In this document: one piece after another, positions 2,112 to 58,885 of the stretch
Layout of the letters: each line of letters starts with the position of its first letter
Position numbering within the stretch: position 1 is the stretch's first letter
Program-made: the position numbers and the translations under genes
The notes under the pieces: generated by a model
Told to the model about the DNA's origin: nothing
The model's input: only the letters and a program-made list of their open reading frames with translations
The model's database searches: none
From: Escherichia phage F13
DNA length: 64,000 bases
Sequence record: OP745617
Strand: one strand, 5' to 3'

Positions 2112-2600
2112 ATGGGATTTTGCACTATGAGTCAAGATTATGTAGCGATGCCTGAAGACTTTGAAGACCCGCGATTCGCAGAGCACAATCAGGCTTTATT
2201 CGATGAGTTCATTGACCTTGTTATTCAGGGTCATGACATGCGCGCAGCTTTTGCACTAGTATTTGGAATGGAAGTTGCAACGGATAACTACACTGGCCAG
2301 CGAATCCTTTGCACGCAACGCAATCCATACTACAAGATGCGCTTCAAAAAGCGTATGGAAGAGATGCCACTCAAGGATTTGTGGAGCGTAAAAGGTGCAA
2401 TTCACAATTTGGTTAAGCTTGTTCGTGATCCAGAAGTCGCGGCGTCAGCCAAGCTTAATGCTATTCGTGAACTGAATATCATCTACGGCATCACGATGAT
2501 TGATGAAAACGGCAATAGTAAAATGGGCCGTTCCATGGACGATTTCTACAAGGATTTTGGAGAGGCGGCCAAAGAAGGTGAGCAATTCTCCCGCCACTAG
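2112..2600 (+). CDS. terminase small subunit-like DNA-binding protein (possible start at 2127)
   Basis: About 160 aa; NQALFDEFIDLVIQGHDMRAAFALVFGM and C-terminal AKLNAIRELNIIYGI resemble TerS (Terminase_2-type) segments; recognised from memory only. Confidence 0.4.
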   Translation: MGFCTMSQDYVAMPEDFEDPRFAEHNQALFDEFIDLVIQGHDMRAAFALVFGMEVATDNYTGQRILCTQRNPYYKMRFKKRMEEMPLKDLWSVKGAIHNLVKLVRDPEVAASAKLNAIRELNIIYGITMIDENGNSKMGRSMDDFYKDFGEAAKEGEQFSRH

Positions 2601-3028: not shown

Positions 3029-3655
3029 TTAGATAATCTGGAAGGTATAGGATTTGTTGCCGAACTCAAAGTTCAAGCGCCCAGCTTCCTTAAGCTTCAT
3101 GCGGAAGCGAATGTGCTTGCTATCCGGCAAGCCCAGCACGGCGAACGCTACGCGGACCGATTTGAACTCGCCTACACCCTCGACCATAACGCCGTTACGG
3201 GTGAGACGCTTTTGCGCCACTTCCTTATTATCCCAACTTTTTGCAATACCTTCGCTATTCGAACGGCGATGGGAAGGAGTTCCATTTTGCACTACGCAAT
3301 TTGCACTATCGTTTAGACCGCTCTTAACGAAGGCTTCATACTCTTCGTCGGTCATCGCGTCGAGTTCTTCCTGGGTCGGCTCGGCCTTTTTAACGACCGC
3401 ACGCGCCTTATGCGTTTTTACATCGCTGGACACTTCCTCGCGCGACTTCGCTTCGGGGATGGGCGATTCGTTGGACGGCTCATCGAGCGCGTTTAAGGAC
3501 TCGATTAACGCGATTACGCGAGTCTCGGCGGTACGGCGGTCCGCAAATTTCTTAATCGGCTTCGAACCGGAATTTGCATTATAAAATGCAACGAGGTCGG
3601 CGGTCTTAGTTGCGATAACGTCGCCGCTAGTCGAGAAACGATTTAAGCTAACCAT
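3029..3655 (-). CDS. hypothetical protein (208 aa)
   Basis: AGGAG RBS upstream of ATG at 3655; contains two tandem motif copies on the opposite strand and the TTTGCATT-N4-AATGCAAA palindrome near its 5' end. Confidence 0.6.
   Translation of the reverse strand: MVSLNRFSTSGDVIATKTADLVAFYNANSGSKPIKKFADRRTAETRVIALIESLNALDEPSNESPIPEAKSREEVSSDVKTHKARAVVKKAEPTQEELDAMTDEEYEAFVKSGLNDSANCVVQNGTPSHRRSNSEGIAKSWDNKEVAQKRLTRNGVMVEGVGEFKSVRVAFAVLGLPDSKHIRFRMKLKEAGRLNFEFGNKSYTFQII
3573..3592. promoter_or_regulatory. Palindromic operator-like site TTTGCATT-ATAA-AATGCAAA
   Basis: Perfect 8-bp inverted arms with 4-bp spacer; a dyad version of the AATTTGCA motif. Confidence 0.35.
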
Positions 3656-6183: not shown

Positions 6184-6564
6184 CTATTCACTCTTATGGG
6201 CATCACCAAATCCATCAGCAATCTGGCTGATCAACGACTCAATGGACACAGTTTTACCAATTGATCGAGCGGTTATGGCGAGCATATTATCAATCAAACC
6301 ATGATTGACACAATACTCTGGAGATTTAGAATCATCTTCAGAACAACCAAAAAGCTGGTCGCGCAGACTTTCAAGAGAACGCTCAATATTTTCCAACTTC
6401 TCTTCTAAATCGGATTGGCGACGTAAAACCCATGTTAAGTCTCGGTTGCCGACTTCCAACCCATCAGAATAGCAAGGTGGAGCGTCAATTTTGATGCTGG
6501 AACCAAAAGCAGTGCCGCTGCCTTTAGTATAAGTATGGCTCATAGAATCATTTTTATTTGACAT
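6184..6564 (-). CDS. hypothetical protein (126 aa from ATG 6564)
   Basis: Last gene of the minus-strand block; internal ATG with weak AAGG RBS chosen over the track start. Confidence 0.45.
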   Translation of the reverse strand: MSNKNDSMSHTYTKGSGTAFGSSIKIDAPPCYSDGLEVGNRDLTWVLRRQSDLEEKLENIERSLESLRDQLFGCSEDDSKSPEYCVNHGLIDNMLAITARSIGKTVSIESLISQIADGFGDAHKSE

Positions 6565-6661
6565 ATCATTACCTTTAATATTTGGGTGATTAACAATAAC
6601 TATAATAAAGCCGCATAGCGCGGCATTCAAATCGATTTATTAATTGTGACGATTGGATTCA

Positions 6662-6856
6662 TCAATCGATACCAACTGAGCCGATGTGCTGAAAGAACTC
6701 TGAATAAACTTCCTTCCAGTACTTACGCGCTGCTTTCTGGGCTTGTCCTTTGCGCTTGAAGCTTTTGCCTTGAAAGATGAAACGGTCGCTTGTCGCGCGA
6801 TACTCCACCACACCTTCCAGCCATTGTAAGAATGCTACTGATTCATTTTTATTCAT
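6662..6856 (-). CDS. hypothetical small basic protein (64 aa)
   Basis: GAGGT RBS 5 nt upstream of ATG. Confidence 0.5.
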   Translation of the reverse strand: MNKNESVAFLQWLEGVVEYRATSDRFIFQGKSFKRKGQAQKAARKYWKEVYSEFFQHIGSVGID

Positions 6857-6863
6857 TTCAACC

Positions 6864-7259
6864 TCAATATTTTAATAAGAAAGCACCCAACCAACTTTCC
6901 TCAACCTCGCGGCCAGTAGCCACACGGTCGGTCTTGGCTATGGGTCTGGATTCGCCGCAGGGCAACCCGTCTTGTAGTTGTGTACTATTGCCAATTCTCA
7001 CCAGAACCTTTCCATCAGGGTCGATATAAGCGCGACAACCCATGATTTCGAGTCGTTGTAGACACTGGCGAATCGTTTTCAGCTTCTCACCGGACCGGAT
7101 AGAGCGCGGTCGCGACCGCTGACCGTTCTTATTTACTGTACGCTTGAAGACCGGAATATCATTGGTGCGTTGCGGCTTGGGTCGGTAGTAGGCTTCTTCG
7201 CCAGGAGTCGCACCTGGCGTCAATTCGCGCTTGAGCGCCTTTTCAATATCAATGATCAT
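6864..7259 (-). CDS. hypothetical protein (131 aa from ATG 7259)
   Basis: Start placed at MIIDIEK, just downstream of the stop of the small upstream ORF (coupling); the track's N-terminal extension overlaps other ORFs. Confidence 0.45.
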   Translation of the reverse strand: MIIDIEKALKRELTPGATPGEEAYYRPKPQRTNDIPVFKRTVNKNGQRSRPRSIRSGEKLKTIRQCLQRLEIMGCRAYIDPDGKVLVRIGNSTQLQDGLPCGESRPIAKTDRVATGREVEESWLGAFLLKY

Positions 7260-7721: not shown

Positions 7722-10031
7722 TTATTTTGCTGATTTCAGCGCGGCTATCTCTGCCTTGAGTTCACCTATCTGATCCATGAGTGCAAGAATAGCCTCGTGG
7801 TGCAATGCCGCTGCCACTCCGTAAGTGTCGACTGATTTGACATCCTTGACCACGGTCCCATCAGCCAGTTCCATATCACCTGAAACAGAAACGGCTTCTG
7901 GGAAATCAACCTCAACATCTTGAGCCACGAATCCAAAACCTACTTTCGCGCCGTCAGTTTTCAATCGCCATGACACGCCATTAATCCTTTTCATCTTGGT
8001 CAATGGGTCTTGAATCTTGACAATCTCATCCTTGATTCTGACGTCTGAAGAAGTACCCCAACCGCCAGCGCAAACAGCATTACCTGCTTGCAGGAATTGG
8101 AAATACTTGTTGGTGCCTACACCGCCAGCAGTAGTGGTCATTATGGTCACATCGCCATTACGCTCAGAATATACCCGACCATACGTTGCTGTGTTGGCAC
8201 TGTTCTTAAAATCGATGAACGATTGGTTGTTGGTGTTTCCAATGAACGTCGCTTGACCGCCGCGAGTTATCAACTGGCCTTTTGCATCAACGTTCCCAGA
8301 GCTGGTGATCAAGTTATTTGGCACAAGCAAGTTGCCGTTGTCGACAAAATCGAATGCCTGGCTGGCGGCAGTCGTCAAATTGGTAACGGTCAATCGCATG
8401 TAATAAGCGCCACCGATAACAGCGCGAATGCGCATGCGACCTTCAGCCTCAACAGCAGTCCCCACTCGATACTCCGACATGACGCTGCCGCCGTCAGCGG
8501 TCGTGCCTGGACCTGGCATTGCCGTATCGCCGTTTATAACAGACCATTGCGTATTCGCCGCTGTGAATCCACCGGATGCACGAATCACCCAAACGCCTGA
8601 AAAGTTGCGCGGCAATACTTCATCTGTTGCAAGGTTGTTACGACCGTAAGCTGGGCTTGAGTTAGAAGCTCTTAGCGCAACGCTTCCCAAAGAGTTCGCA
8701 CCAGAACTTAAAAGCGAAACACCTCTTACATATCGCGGAATGGTGAATCCTTCTCCATTGATGAATGCGCCGCCAGCACCTGCGACAACCGTTCCTGATG
8801 CTGGTTCACTTGCAGGGCCGGACCCGTGGAAGTTGATGTTGCCAGTGATGTTTGGCAGGAAGGATTCCATTATCATTCCGTCATTTGACGAGTTGCCGCC
8901 ATCGCCACGGGCAAAAAGTGCACGAACACTTCCTGTCTGAACGCCGTTACGGTCTGGAACACGGAATGTTGTTGTTCCGTTGCCTAAAGAATACTTTCCG
9001 CGCTTCAGCGGGTCAGCCAACCAATCTGCATCAGCAATAGGCGTAAGCATTTGCGCATAAGCCCAAAGCTCAGGCCAGTCTGCACGGTTAAGCAATTGTC
9101 CGTCGGCAACAACTTCATACGACTGAATATAGGCGCGACTGTCGCGCAGGTGAAAGTCACCAACGCCATAGTTCATTACGCCGTTCATGCTTGGGCCAAC
9201 GGTGCCAGTATTTACTAAGTTCTCAACCCAACGCTTCGTCGCGGCATCATAATCATTGACGGGGTCGCCAGCCAGTGGTGTTGAGCCTTGTGGACGAATA
9301 TTCAACCATGCTTGCGCATTGTCTGCTGATCCTGTGCCGCCCATGGAAGTTGGAACGATGCTCTGATCAGCAACAGGGCCAAATCCAAAGGCATCTTTCA
9401 TTCCCTGAATAGTCGTTTGACCTGTGCCGCCGTTTGCAATTGGAATTGTGCTTTGTGAACTATAAATTTGCGCCCAAGGCGACCATGAAGATGTTTCAGC
9501 ATTGTACCTTCTTTGGTACAAGTTATTTGAGTTGAATGTGGTGTATCTTTGAATGCAACTTTCCAAAGATATGGCAGTCTGCAGGACTTCCAATATCCCA
9601 GCTTCCAAGGCTACTGGATAGTTGAGGGATGTCTGCGCAGCAGCATTTGAATATTGGTAATATTGCCCAAACCAAGTTCCAGTCAAAGAGTTCAGATTTA
9701 TCCCCGACGGCAAAAGTCCAAAATTCCTGACAGTATTGGTCAAAGATGCGGCAGTTGTTCGAATGGAAAGCATGTCGCCTGCCGCCCATGCGCGCGCTGC
9801 AGTTCCTTCCTGTGCACGCTGCACAGTCAGGACGTTCCCAACCACGGCTGTTACAGTGATGATTTCAAATTGGAGGCCTGTTGCAGCGTCGACGATTGTC
9901 GCCACTACACGCTCGTTTGCACCCAAGGTCGGAAAGCCCGACCCTGAGCGGATTGTGATTGTGGTGTCTGAAGTCGTCGCTGGCTGAGCGAGCGCGACCT
10001 CAAAGTTGTTTTTGAATATTAGCCTTGGCAT
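7722..10031 (-). CDS. tail fibre/tail spike protein with C-terminal intramolecular chaperone (S74-type) domain
   Basis: 769 aa, Gly/Thr/Ser/Asn-rich; C-terminus has SDVRIKDEI…DGAKVGFGFVAQDVEVDFPEAV, typical of the auto-cleaving chaperone domain of phage fibres; GAGGA RBS. Confidence 0.7.
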   Translation of the reverse strand: MPRLIFKNNFEVALAQPATTSDTTITIRSGSGFPTLGANERVVATIVDAATGLQFEIITVTAVVGNVLTVQRAQEGTAARAWAAGDMLSIRTTAASLTNTVRNFGLLPSGINLNSLTGTWFGQYYQYSNAAAQTSLNYPVALEAGILEVLQTAISLESCIQRYTTFNSNNLYQRRYNAETSSWSPWAQIYSSQSTIPIANGGTGQTTIQGMKDAFGFGPVADQSIVPTSMGGTGSADNAQAWLNIRPQGSTPLAGDPVNDYDAATKRWVENLVNTGTVGPSMNGVMNYGVGDFHLRDSRAYIQSYEVVADGQLLNRADWPELWAYAQMLTPIADADWLADPLKRGKYSLGNGTTTFRVPDRNGVQTGSVRALFARGDGGNSSNDGMIMESFLPNITGNINFHGSGPASEPASGTVVAGAGGAFINGEGFTIPRYVRGVSLLSSGANSLGSVALRASNSSPAYGRNNLATDEVLPRNFSGVWVIRASGGFTAANTQWSVINGDTAMPGPGTTADGGSVMSEYRVGTAVEAEGRMRIRAVIGGAYYMRLTVTNLTTAASQAFDFVDNGNLLVPNNLITSSGNVDAKGQLITRGGQATFIGNTNNQSFIDFKNSANTATYGRVYSERNGDVTIMTTTAGGVGTNKYFQFLQAGNAVCAGGWGTSSDVRIKDEIVKIQDPLTKMKRINGVSWRLKTDGAKVGFGFVAQDVEVDFPEAVSVSGDMELADGTVVKDVKSVDTYGVAAALHHEAILALMDQIGELKAEIAALKSAK

Positions 10032-10841: not shown

Positions 10842-11052
10842 TTTCTTTCCACTCCACAAATGTGTTGCCGCTTGTTTCTCTGTTTAGCAGGTATCTGCCG
10901 CGCATCCCATGAAGGCTGAACTCAACCGTCGATGGATTAGATTTTGAAAGCCATATAGGCTGCCCGTCGAATGGACCGCCTACGCATGTATATTTCGCTT
11001 TTGGCTCACTCCTTTTGGGCCGTTTTGCCCGCTCTTTGATTGATAGTCTCAT
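10831..11052 (-). CDS. hypothetical protein (73 aa, basic N-terminus)
   Basis: AAGGTG RBS; overlaps neighbours by a few nt. Confidence 0.4.
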   Translation of the reverse strand: MRLSIKERAKRPKRSEPKAKYTCVGGPFDGQPIWLSKSNPSTVEFSLHGMRGRYLLNRETSGNTFVEWKENGK

Positions 11053-11267
11053 CAGTCTTCACCTTGAGATTCCAGACAAGTAAGGACAAGCCAAGTCATC
11101 GGAAGAATCAAAACCAGAGAAATGAGGGACCAGATAGACCAGCACAGGATGACAGACTTGAATGTGTGAACGTCGCCAAACGCAGCAGTAAAACAGAATC
11201 CCATTACAAATGCAATAGCGGTGGAATGGTTGTCTATGGCTTTGATGGCACGGTCGATGAGTTTCAT
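11052..11267 (-). CDS. small membrane protein (71 aa, two predicted TM helices)
   Basis: GGAGG RBS; hydrophobic segments AIAFVMGFCFTAAF and ILCWSIWSLISLVLILPMTWLVL; first gene of the minus operon. Confidence 0.45.
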   Translation of the reverse strand: MKLIDRAIKAIDNHSTAIAFVMGFCFTAAFGDVHTFKSVILCWSIWSLISLVLILPMTWLVLTCLESQGED

Positions 11268-11349
11268 ATTACCTCCGGTTTTGAGTTAATATGATTATAA
11301 CGCAGAGTCTCAGAAAGGCAAACTTTTTGTGAATTTTAATCAAAAAAAA

Positions 11350-11370
11350 TGGCCAGAAAAAAATCTGGCC
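11350..11370. other. Hairpin GGCCAGA-aaaaaaa-TCTGGCC in the divergent promoter region
   Basis: Perfect 7-bp stem with A-rich loop between the minus operon and terL. Confidence 0.35.
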
Positions 11371-11446: not shown

Positions 11447-12907
11447 ATGAATAAAATATTAACACATAATTGGAAATTCATGTACCAGTTGAATCCTGCT
11501 TTAAAAGAAGTCTGGAAGACAAAAGCGCGATACAAAGTAATATACGGCGGTCGTGCATCTTCCAAATCGCACGATGCCGCTGGTTTTGCTATTTATTTGG
11601 CGGCAAACTTCAAATTAAAATTCCTTTGCGTTCGACAATTCCAGAACAAAATTTCTGAATCTGTATATACTCTATTAAAAGACAAAATAGAGATTTCTGA
11701 TTTCAAAGATGAGTTCAATTTATTAAAGAACTCTATTGAACATAAAAGAACTAAATCTGAATTTCTATTTTACGGTATCGCACGTAACGTTGATGAAATT
11801 AAATCAACAGAAGGTGTTGACGTCCTTTGGCTGGAAGAAGCGCACGCGCTTACTGAAGAACAGTGGGACATTATTGAGCCGACAATCCGTAAAGAAGGGT
11901 CCGAAATATGGATCATCTTTAACCCCGATGAAGAGGCCGATTTTGTCTACCAAAACTTTGTTATGCGACCGCCGAAGAATGCCATTGTTAAAAAGATAAA
12001 CTGGCAAGACAATCCATTTTTGTCGCAAACGATGCTGGACGTTATTGCAGGCATGTACGAGCGCGACCCGAAAAAGGCAGAGCACGTTTATGGCGGCGTG
12101 CCGAAGACTGGCGGCGATAAATCTGTAATCAACCGCGCATTCGTTAAGGCCGCGCTTAATCTCCACAAACACCCTACGCTGGGATGGAGTTTGTCAGGGT
12201 CTAACCGTATAGGCTTTGACGTAGCGGACGATGGCGACGACCTTAACGCCACTGCATTCGTTACAGGAAACGTATTGCGCGGCATCAAGACATGGGAAGG
12301 TCTGGAAGATGAATTGTTAAAATCGGCAAGCGGAGTTTGGAAAGATGCGCTTACATTTGGCGCTTCTATAACTTATGACGCCATCGGTGTCGGCGCTTTT
12401 GCTGGTTCAAAATTTGATGAACTGAACGAGTATGCAATACATGAAAATCCATCATTTCCAAGAATCGAATTTAATGCGTTCAATGCGCAAGGGTCTGTTG
12501 ATGATCCTGATGACGTTTTTCTTGAATTACCACACGTTGAAATACTCAATAAAGACCATTTCGCAAACATAAAAGCGCAAAAGTGGACTGAAATTGCAGA
12601 GAGATTCAGAAAGACATACGAATATGCAACTGGGCAAGCCGTATATCCGACTGATGAGTTGATTTCAATCGACACCGATGGCATACCAGAACTTGGAATT
12701 CCAGCTTGGACTACTGAAGAGATTGAGACGTTTCTTTTTGAGATGTCAGCGCCGCGCAAAGATACGTCTGTTCTTGGCAAGTTCAAAGTTGAATCTAAAA
12801 AGGATATGGCAAAGCGTGGAGTCAAATCACCTAACAAAGCGGACGCGGCAATCATGGCATTAATGAAACCAATCGTTGCAGCATCCGGCTTCTTCTCTAA
12901 CCTTTAA
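11447..12907 (+). CDS. terL: terminase large subunit (alternative start 11480)
   Basis: Walker A YKVIYGGRASSKSH, Walker B-like VDVLWLEEAH, size 486 aa and position at the head of the morphogenesis module. Confidence 0.85.
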   Translation: MNKILTHNWKFMYQLNPALKEVWKTKARYKVIYGGRASSKSHDAAGFAIYLAANFKLKFLCVRQFQNKISESVYTLLKDKIEISDFKDEFNLLKNSIEHKRTKSEFLFYGIARNVDEIKSTEGVDVLWLEEAHALTEEQWDIIEPTIRKEGSEIWIIFNPDEEADFVYQNFVMRPPKNAIVKKINWQDNPFLSQTMLDVIAGMYERDPKKAEHVYGGVPKTGGDKSVINRAFVKAALNLHKHPTLGWSLSGSNRIGFDVADDGDDLNATAFVTGNVLRGIKTWEGLEDELLKSASGVWKDALTFGASITYDAIGVGAFAGSKFDELNEYAIHENPSFPRIEFNAFNAQGSVDDPDDVFLELPHVEILNKDHFANIKAQKWTEIAERFRKTYEYATGQAVYPTDELISIDTDGIPELGIPAWTTEEIETFLFEMSAPRKDTSVLGKFKVESKKDMAKRGVKSPNKADAAIMALMKPIVAASGFFSNL

Positions 12908-12910
12908 CAA

Positions 12911-13150
12911 TCAAAGCATTCCGTGCTGAAGGTCTAGTTTTCTTGCAGCAAATGACCTGGCACGGAATCGCTTACCCGCCCTTACTGCCTGCCGAATCTT
13001 CTTTTGCATACACTTACGGTCAAAATCGTTGCGGTCAACGGCTTCGAGTAAATCCCGACGCAAAGCACCTAGTGTCGCCTTTTCGGATAATTCTACGCCC
13101 AGCGCGGCTGCAACGTCTTTCAAAACATCGAGTTCGGTTAACGTTCTCAT
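12911..13150 (-). CDS. hypothetical protein (79 aa, basic C-terminus)
   Basis: Minus-strand ORF coupled (ATGA) to the 13147-13563 gene, wedged between terL and portal. Confidence 0.4.
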   Translation of the reverse strand: MRTLTELDVLKDVAAALGVELSEKATLGALRRDLLEAVDRNDFDRKCMQKKIRQAVRAGKRFRARSFAARKLDLQHGML

Positions 13151-13563
13151 TTGATAATCCCCTTGATGTCTGATTCTGCCATAAAGATTGGAGTGCCGCC
13201 GCCAGGAACAATCGAGCGCGTTACTTTGTCGAACATATCGTTTTCTTCAACTTGAATACGATAAAATTTATTCTTGGATGAAGATGGGCACAATTCCATA
13301 AATTTACCAATGCCGCGAACGCATTCATCTTCAAAGTATACTGTTTCACCTTGAATGGATTCGATGTTTTCAACCGGATACACCTTGCGACCTAAAAGCC
13401 ATTCATCCATGGTCGCCTGCAACACGCTTCTCGCATCCAAAATCCAAGGGTCAACTGTGGCACCTTCATATCGCGCAGCAGTGGCTTTTGCCAGCTCTTC
13501 ATATTCGCATACGTTTACTACTTCGCCTTGATGAAGGACGACAAATACAATTGTTGTGCTCAT
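13147..13563 (-). CDS. hypothetical protein (138 aa)
   Basis: AGGAG RBS upstream of ATG 13563; opposite strand to the flanking structural genes. Confidence 0.5.
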   Translation of the reverse strand: MSTTIVFVVLHQGEVVNVCEYEELAKATAARYEGATVDPWILDARSVLQATMDEWLLGRKVYPVENIESIQGETVYFEDECVRGIGKFMELCPSSSKNKFYRIQVEENDMFDKVTRSIVPGGGTPIFMAESDIKGIIK

Positions 13564-13658
13564 TTCAATCTCCTTTCGTTTGGTTAACTAAAATATAACT
13601 CAAAATGATACAAAAGCAAAATATTTTATGAACTATTTATGATTACTATACATATCAT

Positions 13659-13687
13659 TTGCTTACAAACACATGAATATTTATAAT
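13659..13687 (+). promoter_or_regulatory. sigma70-like promoter TTGCTT-N17-TATAAT upstream of the portal gene
   Basis: Hexamers and spacing read from sequence. Confidence 0.4.
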
Positions 13688-13725
13688 ATAGATTGATTCC
13701 CTTTCACTGTCAGGTGGCGTTAACA

Positions 13726-16101
13726 ATGAAAATTCTTGGCATAAAACTCTGGGAGAAGACGCGACCAGAAGCCGAACCAGCGGAGATGCCGCCAGGCGAC
13801 CCATTGGCACCGTTTGAACGCCTTGAAAGGCGCGGCAGCGGTCAACGCTGGGAAAAGACTGAAAGCAATCGACCGACCTTTAAAACGGTTGATGACTTCC
13901 CTTTATATGAGCCTGATATTAACGGGGACGGTGTTGCAATCATCAAAGGTCGCTCAGTAGATTCAGCAACCGTATCCAAAAAAGTTATGGATAATGCCTT
14001 AAAGAACATCAGTTCAGAAGGGCAGGTGAATCCATACACAGTGCCTATTCAGTTGCAAAACTGGTACTTATCGCAATCATTTATCGGATATCAAGCTTGC
14101 GCCATCATCGCGCAGCACTGGCTAGTGAACAAGGCTTGTTCCATGGTAGGCCGCGATGCGGTCCGTAAAGGCTGGGAAGTCAAATCCAGTTCTGAGTCGG
14201 AATTGTCAGTACAGGCCAGCGAACGCTTAAAGCAAATTGATAAAGAATTTAACATCAAAGAGCACTTAGTTGAAGCCGAACGATTCAAGAATATTTTTGG
14301 CATCCGCGTCATCATATTTGATGTGCGCAGTGATGACCCAGAATATTATAGCAAACCTTTTAACATCGATGGTGTGACAAAAGGGTCTTATAAGGGAATC
14401 ATTCAGGTTGACCCTTATTGGATGATGCCATTCTTGACGTCTGAAAACACTGCAGACCCTGCGTCACAGCATTTCTATGATCCAGAATACTGGGTGATCA
14501 GCGGACAGCGTTATCATCGCAGCCACCTAATCATCTTGCGCAACGATGAGCCAGCTGATATTCTCAAGCCGACTTATATCTACGGCGGCATTCCTCTGAC
14601 TCAGCAGATTTATGAACGTATCTATGCCGCTGAACGTACCGCTAACGAAGCGCCATTGCTGGCGATGTCTAAGCGTACAACCACGCTTCGGACCGACGTT
14701 GACAAGGCGATTGCCAATGAGCGGTCGTTTGCCGAACGTCTGATGATGTGGATTAAGTACCGCGACAACTATGCAGTCAAAGTGCTTGGTCAGAAAGAAG
14801 AGATGGACCAGTTCGACATCAACTTGTCAGACTTCGACAGCATCATCATGAACCAGTACCAGCTGGTGGCCGCAATCGCAAAAGTTCCGTCGACAAAACT
14901 GTTAGGGACGTCACCTAAAGGCTTTAACGCCACTGGTGAGTTCGAAATGGTCAGCTATCACGAAGAATTGGAGACTTGTCAACAGCACGATTTGACGAAG
15001 ATTCTTGACCGCCACTATAAAATCCTTTTGAAGTCTGAAGGCGTGGAAGTCGACGTTAAAGTGGCATGGGAGCCAGTTGGTTCACTTACTGCTACTCAGC
15101 TTGCAGAGATTAACGACAAACGAGCGAATACTGGCAAGACTCTCATTGATGCTGGCGTAATCTCCCCTGATGAAGAGCGCGACCGCATCAAGGACGACAA
15201 AAACAGCGGCTACAACCGTTTGCCGGAAGATGCAGCAGAAGAAACCCCAGGGATGTCTCCAGAGAATATGGCACTGCTTGGCAAGTCTGCTGGTGAAGTT
15301 CTGCAAGGCAAGGCCGATATTGAACAGGCCAAAGCTGATGTTGTCAAGATGGGCGGCCAGTTCTATAGCGAGACTGGTATTATGCCGGAAGGTGCCGCGC
15401 GTGGTGAGTTGGCGGAAAACCCTGACAGGGCACCAGTTGAGATTAACATGGATGATACCGATGACGAATCAAGCCATCACGTTGATGTCCTAACGCAACT
15501 GAAAGAAGGTCTGGAGGGTATTGCTGACTATTACCTTAAAGAAGGTCAGGACGTGGATTTTGACCCTCAAAAAGATGCAAGGTCGGTGCAACCGTCTACG
15601 CTTCCAAGCGTAAAAGGAAATGTCGTGAACTTGCGACACAATGTAGGGAAGATGGATGCTGCATCGCTGCCTAAGATGAAGTTGCACGGGATGATTCTTG
15701 GTATTGAGAATCCTCGCAACAGCATTCGCAGGGGTAACAGCCTTGATGGTGAATGGGCAGTTAAGATGCCGCACCATTACGGATTTATCAAAGGCACCAA
15801 GGGCGCTGATGGTGATGAAGTCGACTGCTTTGTTGGACCAAACATGAAGTCGCCTAAAGTATTCATCATTAACCAAAATGATAATTATTCTGGCGAATTT
15901 GATGAACACAAGTGTATGCTTGGATTTGATTCAGCAGAAGAAGCGAAAGAAGCTTATCAGGCGTCATTTGGTAACGGTTGGAACGGATTTGACTCAATCC
16001 ACGAATTGGATGTAAACTCATTCAAGGAGTGGTTGAAGGGTGATTGCTCTCAAGCATATGGAGCACTCAACAATCCTACTAATTCACCGAAGCAAGGTTG
16101 A
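13726..16101 (+). CDS. portal protein with C-terminal inorganic-pyrophosphatase-like domain
   Basis: Large ORF directly after terL (AGGTGG RBS, ATG 13726); C-terminal ~150 aa carry GIENP…HYGFIKGTKGADGDEVDCFVG…GFDSAEEAKEAYQASF, resembling family I PPase (IEIP…YGFIP…DGDPVDVLV…GWENAEAAKAEIVASF). The portal call is from position and size. Confidence 0.6.
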   Translation: MKILGIKLWEKTRPEAEPAEMPPGDPLAPFERLERRGSGQRWEKTESNRPTFKTVDDFPLYEPDINGDGVAIIKGRSVDSATVSKKVMDNALKNISSEGQVNPYTVPIQLQNWYLSQSFIGYQACAIIAQHWLVNKACSMVGRDAVRKGWEVKSSSESELSVQASERLKQIDKEFNIKEHLVEAERFKNIFGIRVIIFDVRSDDPEYYSKPFNIDGVTKGSYKGIIQVDPYWMMPFLTSENTADPASQHFYDPEYWVISGQRYHRSHLIILRNDEPADILKPTYIYGGIPLTQQIYERIYAAERTANEAPLLAMSKRTTTLRTDVDKAIANERSFAERLMMWIKYRDNYAVKVLGQKEEMDQFDINLSDFDSIIMNQYQLVAAIAKVPSTKLLGTSPKGFNATGEFEMVSYHEELETCQQHDLTKILDRHYKILLKSEGVEVDVKVAWEPVGSLTATQLAEINDKRANTGKTLIDAGVISPDEERDRIKDDKNSGYNRLPEDAAEETPGMSPENMALLGKSAGEVLQGKADIEQAKADVVKMGGQFYSETGIMPEGAARGELAENPDRAPVEINMDDTDDESSHHVDVLTQLKEGLEGIADYYLKEGQDVDFDPQKDARSVQPSTLPSVKGNVVNLRHNVGKMDAASLPKMKLHGMILGIENPRNSIRRGNSLDGEWAVKMPHHYGFIKGTKGADGDEVDCFVGPNMKSPKVFIINQNDNYSGEFDEHKCMLGFDSAEEAKEAYQASFGNGWNGFDSIHELDVNSFKEWLKGDCSQAYGALNNPTNSPKQG

Positions 16102-32760: not shown

Positions 32761-32789
32761 TTGCTTATAGACTCCTTATAGATTATAAT
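32761..32789 (+). promoter_or_regulatory. sigma70-like promoter TTGCTT-N17-TATAAT inside the tail module
   Basis: Consensus-like hexamers with 17-bp spacer upstream of the baseplate genes. Confidence 0.45.
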
Positions 32790-58827: not shown

Positions 58828-58885
58828 TTTGCTTTTATTTTCATAGCAACTATAATCATTTTATGAACTGAAGCAGAGGTGATTT

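Follow-up and report, generated by a model that had tools for sequence, protein, structure and literature searches.

A minus-strand gene pair between terL and portal in Wifcevirus phages, a candidate minimal form of the antisense cassette of Pbunavirus-like phages

Two overlapping genes and a divergent control region

The window, that is, the whole stretch of 64,000 nucleotides of Escherichia phage F13 that was analysed (OP745617), is 100% identical over the 5.5 kb tested to Escherichia phage vB_EcoM_SP13 (Wifcevirus, OP352608). Two minus-strand genes of 138 and 79 aa, overlapping by ATGA, occupy the slot between terL and the portal gene. An earlier account made from the letters alone (the sequence-only reading) had described this arrangement, which both the ORF listing and the sequence bear out. 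The locus is composed of the following features, with terL and the portal gene given as context:

11447-12907, plus strand: terL (PF04466, E 3e-37)
12911-13150, minus strand: 79-aa gene with ATG start, from the ORF listing; CDS SP13_021, orthologue of vB_Eco4M-7 gp34
13147-13150, minus strand: ATGA overlap of the 138-aa gene stop and the 79-aa gene start, coupling both; read from the sequence
13147-13563, minus strand: 138-aa gene with ATG start, from the ORF listing; CDS SP13_022, orthologue of vB_Eco4M-7 gp35
13158-13164, minus strand: Shine-Dalgarno-like AAGGGGA, 8 nt 5' of the 79-aa gene ATG, read from the sequence; an RBS is annotated at the corresponding position in phage Mansfield
13564-13725, no strand: divergent control region from the pair to the portal gene, AT-rich (26.5% GC)
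13570-13573, minus strand: Shine-Dalgarno GGAG, 6 nt 5' of the 138-aa gene ATG, read from the sequence; RBS annotated in phage Mansfield
13619 to 13592, minus strand: the pair's own sigma70-like promoter, TTGCTT-N16-TATATT, conserved in a nine-sequence alignment
13659-13687, plus strand: portal-side sigma70-like promoter, TTGCTT-N17-TATAAT, with the -10 invariant in the same alignment
13726-16101, plus strand: portal gene with C-terminal InPase domain (PF06381, E 4.5e-88)

The start of the portal gene was taken at the annotated ATG (13726) and not at the mechanical TTG (13693). Both ORFs of the pair are annotated as hypothetical proteins in phages SP13, Mansfield, vB_Eco4M-7 and Bas99. The AAGGGGA of the 79-aa gene sits within the 3' end of the 138-aa gene. 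Downstream, the 79-aa gene and terL are convergent, and their stops lie 3 nt apart without a terminator between them.

The sequence-only reading had proposed to look at the presence and absence of the pair in related phages. Within Wifcevirus the pair is invariant rather than patchy: it is full length in 28 of the 28 records of the phage collection, with 93-100% amino acid identity, and no presence/absence polymorphism was seen among them. When four Wifcevirus genomes were compared (dS maximum 0.43), dN/dS ranged from 0.07 to 0.18 for the 138-aa gene, from 0 to 0.18 for the 79-aa gene and from 0.01 to 0.02 for terL. Given values of 0-0.18, both ORFs are real genes under purifying selection. 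The GC content of the two genes (0.434 and 0.496) falls on either side of the window mean of 0.461, and their GC3 is close to the values of terL and portal. A genuine presence/absence polymorphism does occur nearby, in the form of a 259-bp indel upstream of terL, unlike the invariant pair.

To describe the control region we relied on an intergenic alignment of nine sequences, composed of three Wifcevirus phages, four uncultured lineages (L006-L009), Pantoea phage Kyle and Pseudomonas phage 14-1. In the promoter of the pair, the TT of the -35 and positions A2, A4 and T6 of the -10 are invariant in all nine sequences, phage 14-1 included, and the GGAG/GAGG before the 138-like gene is also kept. 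In 14-1, an annotated sigma70 promoter in front of portal (9214-9240) aligns with the portal-side promoter. The window holds four occurrences of the pattern TTGCTT-N16-18-TATAWT, compared with 0.09 expected, and none of 100 shuffles reached four. Since the -35 of the portal-side promoter matches only three of the six consensus bases, this promoter was missing from the list of a generic scan. The sequence-only reading had nevertheless placed it exactly. It had also credited the pair with a promoter of its own, which is correct in that the region holds divergent promoters; the site that it cited is the portal-side one, and the promoter of the pair at 13619 to 13592 had been missed. A further minus-strand candidate from the generic scan, CTGACA-N17-TATATT (13713 to 13685), was rejected on the grounds that its -35 is not conserved in relatives.

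No terminator-like site was found between 11400 and 15200, and so none belongs to the pair. The next minus-strand terminator-like hairpin available to leftward transcripts lies at 11370-11351. With no terminator 3' of the pair and its stop only 3 nt from that of terL, leftward transcripts may run antisense into terL. No Rfam family was detected within 12000-14500, and the control region (13564-13725) holds neither significant repeats nor an operator-like motif. The conserved ATACATATCA block, when searched genome-wide, showed no enrichment over chance. Because a sigma70-like promoter of this kind also precedes portal, a late gene, promoter type cannot discriminate the timing of expression.

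Published experiments on Wifcevirus phages bear directly on the two products. Mass spectrometry (MS) identified 33 proteins in preparations of vB_Eco4M-7 and 28 in those of ECML-117, among them portal, non-structural enzymes and small proteins down to 7.6-7.8 kDa; gp34, gp35 and their ECML-117 equivalents are absent from both sets, although small proteins can escape MS (PMC7048862). In a synthetic-genome study, vB_Eco4M-7 gp35 was among 20 proteins tagged, in this case with a C-terminal HiBiT; one tagging category comprised genes right after a predicted transcription start, and the category of gp35 is not given (PMC11074155). The gp35-HiBiT phage formed 336 plaques compared with 332 for the untagged phage, and the terL-tagged phage formed none (PMC11074155). 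After subtraction of the published mean differences, the signal of the gp35 tag above the no-tag control was approximately 3.1e6 RLU compared with 1.08e7 for the portal tag in strain ATCC 43888, and approximately 3.8e5 compared with 1.9e5 in Ec134, that is, about 0.2-2 times the signal of tagged portal over the two strains (values from PMC11074155). This luminescence above the no-tag control means that the orthologue of the 138-aa protein is made during infection. Furthermore, the phage tolerates a C-terminal insertion in gp35, which must disrupt the ATGA junction.

Antisense cassettes at the same slot in related phages

Five further lineages of enterobacterial phages also carry both genes, as part of a larger antisense cassette at the same slot. 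Overall, antisense cassettes between terL and portal were found in Kylevirus, in the four uncultured lineages, in Myosmarvirus and in Pbunavirus; Burkholderia phage Maja is without one. Gene families were defined by clustering, and the cassettes that hold both genes are listed below in the order from portal to terL (protein sizes in aa):

Wifcevirus: 138, 79
L006: 137, Trypsin_2 lipoprotein protease 202, 79, DUF2786/DUF7168 253
L008: 138, protease 199, 74, 106, DUF2786
Pantoea phage Kyle: 143, protease 181, 76, 101, DUF2786
L009: 141, protease 190, 71, 78, 102, 179, DUF2786
L007: 136, protease remnant of 45 aa, 73, 98, 162, DUF2786

In Kyle (KYLE_28 and KYLE_26) and in L006-L009, the homologues of both proteins keep the order and place that they have in Wifcevirus. 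These phages differ from Wifcevirus in having a protease gene or its remnant between the two, followed by one to four further genes including DUF2786. An intact protease gene separates the 138-like and 79-like genes in four of the five sister lineages (Kyle, L006, L008 and L009), and the remnant in L007 consists of the protease signal peptide fused to the C-terminal tail. The 138-like gene comes first in every cassette that has one and is translationally coupled to whichever gene comes next; in the relatives, an ATGA-type coupling joins it to the protease gene. Since the 79-like gene normally lies downstream of the protease gene, the two-gene layout of Wifcevirus may have come from loss of the protease. 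The ATGA overlap would then be, most simply, a scar of losing the protease and DUF2786 genes, as argued from parsimony rather than from a rooted tree.

Other cassettes at this slot are larger and more divergent. Myosmarvirus, represented by phage TropicalSun, has eight antisense genes including DUF2786, and neither the 138-aa nor the 79-aa family was found among them. The TropicalSun cassette encodes a membrane protein annotated as superinfection immunity protein. Pseudomonas phage 14-1 (Pbunavirus) carries fourteen antisense genes, gp04-gp17. Phage F8, too, has a long antisense cassette after terL, of which the part retrieved holds nine genes or more.

The 14-1 cassette opens with gp17, which adjoins portal and has the same position and orientation as the 138-aa gene. 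We recovered gp17 with the profile of the 138-aa family (hmmsearch, 38 bits), and profile-profile alignment supports the match (hhalign probability 97.7%, E 1.5e-12) over 116 columns that cover both domains. In addition, hmmscan assigns gp17 to phrog_5124 (E 1.4e-87) and matches the 138-aa protein of the window to the same family (E 0.0017). Of three further family members tested, two also match phrog_5124 (E 2e-5 to 2e-4), and the L009 member has no match. Profile similarity and gene position together make the 138-aa protein both homologous to 14-1 gp17 and its positional orthologue. No member of the 79-aa family was found in 14-1.

Both families are very rare outside Wifcevirus, and all matches come from related phage contigs. 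An exhaustive phmmer search with the 138-aa protein as query covered 1.84 billion representatives and returned four proteins at E <= 0.001, the cluster of the query itself being absent. In word-indexed searches of 5.8 billion proteins, the 138-aa protein matched nine clusters and the 79-aa family, searched as a profile, seven, and each of these clusters comes from the phage lineages named above. When IMG/VR was scanned with the 79-aa profile, matches were detected in Wifcevirus and Kyle only.

Predicted properties of the two proteins and their possible roles

The 138-aa protein is acidic (pI 4.7), as is its whole family including gp17 (pI 4.5-4.9). In its AF2 model (pLDDT 78), a beta-beta-alpha-beta domain at the N-terminus is followed by a small C-terminal barrel of SH3/Sm/Tudor-like type, and a D-E-x-x-x-G-x-G-K stretch in this barrel is kept as far as 14-1 gp17. 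The 79-aa protein is instead basic (pI 10.3; family 9.3-10.3), and its C-terminal half carries a charge of +8.8. It is modelled as four helices (pLDDT 75.5), with a conserved motif of the family, hAAxL[GD][VI][ED], at a helix-loop junction and two invariant residues, Cys47 and Arg63.

The N-terminal motif of the 79-aa protein can be likened to SAP/HeH motifs, helix-extended loop-helix folds of about 35 residues, as in the SAP domains of SIZ1, PIAS1 and FAN1 and in the Rho N-terminal subdomain, through fold matches that are generic and weak. The protein differs from these in having an extra basic two-helix tail with the invariant Cys47. The SAP, Rho_N and HeH profiles (PF02037, PF07498 and PF12949) gave no match at E <= 1 for six members of the family. 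The 79-aa profile likewise showed no similarity to the E. coli Rho N-terminus, for which an approximate query sequence was used (hhalign 0.3%). The predicted function of the 79-aa protein is probably related to nucleic acids.

With the exception of phrog_5124, the searches of Pfam, PHROGs, NCBIfam and PADLOC returned only sub-threshold noise for both proteins and all family members. The statement of the sequence-only reading that no motif supports a specific function agrees with this absence of matches to families of known function in the four collections. Profile searches against PDB sequences gave nothing for either family. In BFVD, the Foldseek matches at E <= 0.001 were all to the family itself, and the best match outside it was F1B2M8 (E 1.7e-3, TM 0.34, 12% identity).

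The sequence-only reading had taken the pair for an insertion, suggestive of a moron. The occurrence of the pair in 28/28 records, its normal GC, the lack of a terminator and the cassettes at the same place in relatives speak against this assignment. In particular, a recent horizontal insertion is rejected by the presence of the pair in all 28 Wifcevirus records together with its native composition. The host-interaction role that had been proposed for the pair is plausible by analogy, given what is encoded at the same locus in Pbunavirus.

One specific form of such a role is that the two genes are anti-defence or superinfection-exclusion accessory genes, which neutralise host immunity or exclude competing phages. 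The locus is a plasticity zone, with 2 to 14 cassette genes among relatives, and several of these look accessory, such as the lipoprotein protease and the superinfection immunity protein of TropicalSun. The acidic nature of the 138-aa protein, the full viability of the gp35-tagged phage (PMC11074155) and the considerable restriction resistance of Wifcevirus phages (PMC11990801) also fit. However, the pair is the very part of the cassette that does not vary (28/28 records, six lineages) without presence/absence polymorphism, unlike typical host-specific counter-defence genes, and the 138-aa family extends to Pseudomonas phages. Moreover, no transmembrane segments or signal peptides were detected in either protein. 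We regard this function as possible but rather unlikely.

The pair may alternatively encode phage-intrinsic transcription regulators, acting on the back-to-back promoters or on host RNAP or Rho and thereby timing the switch to late portal and head expression. The two genes lie directly at the conserved divergent promoter region, and the 79-aa protein combines a DNA-binding-like fold with a basic tail. In addition, the 14-1 cassette encodes gp12, which binds the RNAP alpha subunit, and some 14-1 promoters require an unknown phage factor (PMC10914365). These points are countered by searches of the control region and elsewhere, which revealed neither operator-like repeats nor enriched motifs, by the generic and weak fold matches, and by the 79-aa family missing in 14-1 despite its conserved promoter architecture. 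It is doubtful, although conceivable, that the gp17-like barrel protein, together with the SAP-like 79-aa protein in the enterobacterial lineages, forms an unrecognised early regulator of a universally conserved machine of the host, such as RNA polymerase, Rho or the nucleoid, or of an early-to-late promoter switch in Pbunavirus-like phages, and we hold regulation in general to be just as doubtful. Both anti-defence and regulatory functions are compatible with the identity of the locus as an early region.

An accessory role in packaging or head assembly, for example as small terminase or as a chaperone of portal or terminase, could explain why the pair is located between terL and portal, why it is conserved clade-wide and why its 79-aa product looks DNA-binding, and TerS is annotated in no Wifcevirus record. 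Yet the pair lies on the strand opposite to the head genes, both proteins are absent from virion MS (PMC7048862), and tagging of terL was lethal whereas tagging of gp35 had no effect (PMC11074155). Moreover, window positions 2112-2600 (plus strand) already encode a clear homologue of the experimentally defined TerS of E217/14-1 (PDB 7UXE; E 6e-34, 41% identity), and neither protein of the pair matches TerS. The small terminase is thus excluded for the pair, and in Pbunavirus, too, TerS lies far from terL (PMC9611059). A role in packaging is very improbable. The sequence-only reading had set its proposal against both proteins being conserved virion or packaging components: conserved in relatives they are, but their absence from MS and the location of TerS elsewhere argue against such components.

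A phage-borne type II toxin-antitoxin-like module, which the compact two-gene form and the acidic and basic products of two small, overlapping and co-transcribed genes had brought to mind, is hardly credible: the searches of Pfam, NCBIfam and PADLOC and of structures revealed no toxin or antitoxin family or fold, the protease gene keeps the two genes apart in four of five sister lineages, 14-1 has the homologue of the 138-aa protein alone, a tag at the gene junction left the phage fully viable (PMC11074155), and a toxicity screen of 38 Pbunavirus early ORFans, which may or may not have included gp17, detected effects of gp12 and YIP peptides only (PMC8085984).

A proposed early region and its comparison with known systems

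The reading that we favour, at a probability of about 0.55, is that in the pair an ancestral leftward cassette, placed between terL and portal in Pbunavirus-like myoviruses, has its minimal form of two genes, which encode non-structural early proteins. In phage 14-1, gp11 (YIP) binds the diguanylate cyclase YfiN (PMC8085984), and gp12 is a transcription inhibitor that binds the alpha subunit of RNA polymerase (PMC8085984, PMC10914365); both are ascribed to 'the early genome region', and both map within the terL-portal cassette. Host RNA polymerase would transcribe the pair early in infection, 'early' being carried over from the Pbunavirus papers, which use the word for the region; nothing specific on the function or timing of gp17 itself was found in PMC10914365, bioRxiv 10.1101/248849 and PMC12676376. 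Both products would then act in the cytoplasm as non-structural proteins. The acidic 138-aa protein may serve, through its modelled SH3/Sm/Tudor-like barrel, as an adaptor that binds proteins or nucleic acids. Its conservation in both Pseudomonas and E. coli phages makes a target that is phage-intrinsic, or highly conserved among hosts, more probable than a host-specific one. The basic 79-aa protein, with its SAP/HeH-like N-terminal motif and its strongly basic helical tail at the C-terminus, may bind nucleic acid or a nucleic-acid-handling machine. The tight layout would have arisen through loss of the lipoprotein protease and DUF2786 genes, and is no evidence of a two-component module.

If so, a locus with the look of a small foreign insert represents the core that is conserved from an old, host-manipulating early region of Pbunavirus-like phages, and an ORFan of Wifcevirus is now linked to the gp17 family of Pbunavirus. 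Two clade-restricted proteins have outlasted the rest of the cassette, and are hence the best local candidates for a core early function. The probable origin of the pairing as a deletion scar also suggests caution in taking two overlapping small genes as the signature of a toxin-antitoxin system. Pbunavirus-like phages are widely used in phage therapy and Wifcevirus phages in O157 detection; the practical value of the present result is modest until a function is found.

Several known systems can be compared with the pair. Classical morons are independent units of promoter, gene and terminator, with foreign composition and patchy distribution. The pair resembles them in having its own promoter and in running against the neighbouring late genes, but it has no terminator, its composition is native, and it is genus-wide and ancestral in the clade. 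The likeness to 14-1 gp17 (ORF16; phrog_5124) is closer for the 138-aa protein: the two are of similar size (133 and 138 aa, respectively), both are acidic and both are encoded behind a conserved divergent promoter region. They differ in that they share only about 25% identity, and in that gp17 heads a cassette of 14 genes, with unrelated genes next to it and no 79-aa partner.

As a whole, the locus is best compared with the early region of Pbunavirus. The Wifcevirus version is far smaller, with 2 genes (0.65 kb) compared with 14 (approximately 6.8 kb), and unlike its counterpart it has neither a homologue of gp11 or gp12 nor a bidirectional terminator adjoining terL. It also lacks the DUF2786/DUF7168 gene that is common to every other cassette-bearing relative. 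Nonetheless, the two regions occupy the same slot, run in the same antisense orientation and begin with a gp17-like gene.

A protease gene probably lost between the two minus-strand genes

In four of five sister lineages, the counterparts of the two minus-strand genes between terL and portal (138 and 79 aa) are separated by a gene for a Trypsin_2-type protease, whose signal peptide is lipoprotein-like (…LAGCS…). In the fifth, an uncultured lineage, this protease is reduced to 45 aa:

L006 (uncultured lineage), 8411-9019: protease gene
L004 (Pantoea phage Kyle), 6414-6959: protease gene
L008 (uncultured lineage), 6414-7013: protease gene
L009 (uncultured lineage), 6426-6998: protease gene
L007 (uncultured lineage), 3250-3387: 45-aa remnant, signal peptide fused to the C-terminal tail

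In Wifcevirus, the intervening gene is entirely absent, most simply through loss. By analogy with Pbunavirus, the antisense cassette that carries the protease in the sister lineages is probably early, and a secreted lipoprotein protease would be unusual in such a setting.

Genes and start codons around terL and portal

Upstream of terL, we found a 259-bp indel (window ~11335-11345; positions 1340-1600 of L002, a stretch that carries the sequence). It hosts a 76-aa minus-strand gene present in Mansfield, vB_Eco4M-7, ECML-117 and others and missing from SP13. The 7.8 kDa product, vB_Eco4M-7_32, had a high score in mass spectrometry of the phage preparation (PMC7048862). In contrast to the 138-aa/79-aa pair, this indel is a genuine presence/absence polymorphism. 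Nearby, the GenBank record of SP13 reports an ORF of 42 aa on the plus strand (record 9098-9226, window 11166-11294) where Mansfield, vB_Eco4M-7 and Bas99 have a 71-aa minus-strand gene (window 11052-11267); the 42-aa ORF is probably a mis-call.

For both portal and terL, curated annotation uses starts that lie 3' of the mechanically called ones (TTG 13693 and ATG 11447, respectively). The portal start is ATG 13726, with an AGGTGG Shine-Dalgarno sequence, in every record inspected. For terL the records differ, some using ATG 11480 and others 11447. At its C-terminus, the portal protein (13726-16101, plus strand) carries an inorganic pyrophosphatase-like InPase domain (PF18823, E 4e-46; residues ~660-782 of the mechanical ORF), and the L006 and L009 portals are recorded with the same fusion.

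About 9 kb upstream of terL, 2112-2600 (plus strand) encodes a protein clearly homologous to the small terminase that has been defined experimentally for Pseudomonas phage E217/14-1 (PDB 7UXE; E 6e-34, 41% identity over 146 aa). Wifcevirus annotation gives it only as 'hypothetical protein' (Bas99_0094), and its PHROG, phrog_4783, is labelled 'unknown function'.

Promoter-like sequences and antisense transcription

The TTGCTT-type promoter pattern occurs four times in the window, compared with 0.09 matches expected by chance, which suggests that one class of promoters in this phage uses TTGCTT as its -35 element. Two of the four lie in the divergent control region between the pair and portal (13564-13725); the others, and the next minus-strand hairpin beyond the pair, are:

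32761-32789, plus strand: exact match to TTGCTT-N16-18-TATAAT
58829-58856, plus strand: exact match to TTGCTT-N16-18-TATAAT
11351-11370, minus strand: terminator-like hairpin, GGCCAGA-loop-TCTGGCC with a T-run

The converging stops of terL and the 79-aa gene are separated by 3 nt (12908-12910), and the terminator scan found no terminator-like site 3' of the pair. Since the next hairpin sits just past the 5' end of terL, transcription from the promoter of the pair could run antisense over all of terL. This arrangement differs from that of Pbunavirus F8, where a bidirectional terminator lies between terL and the cassette.
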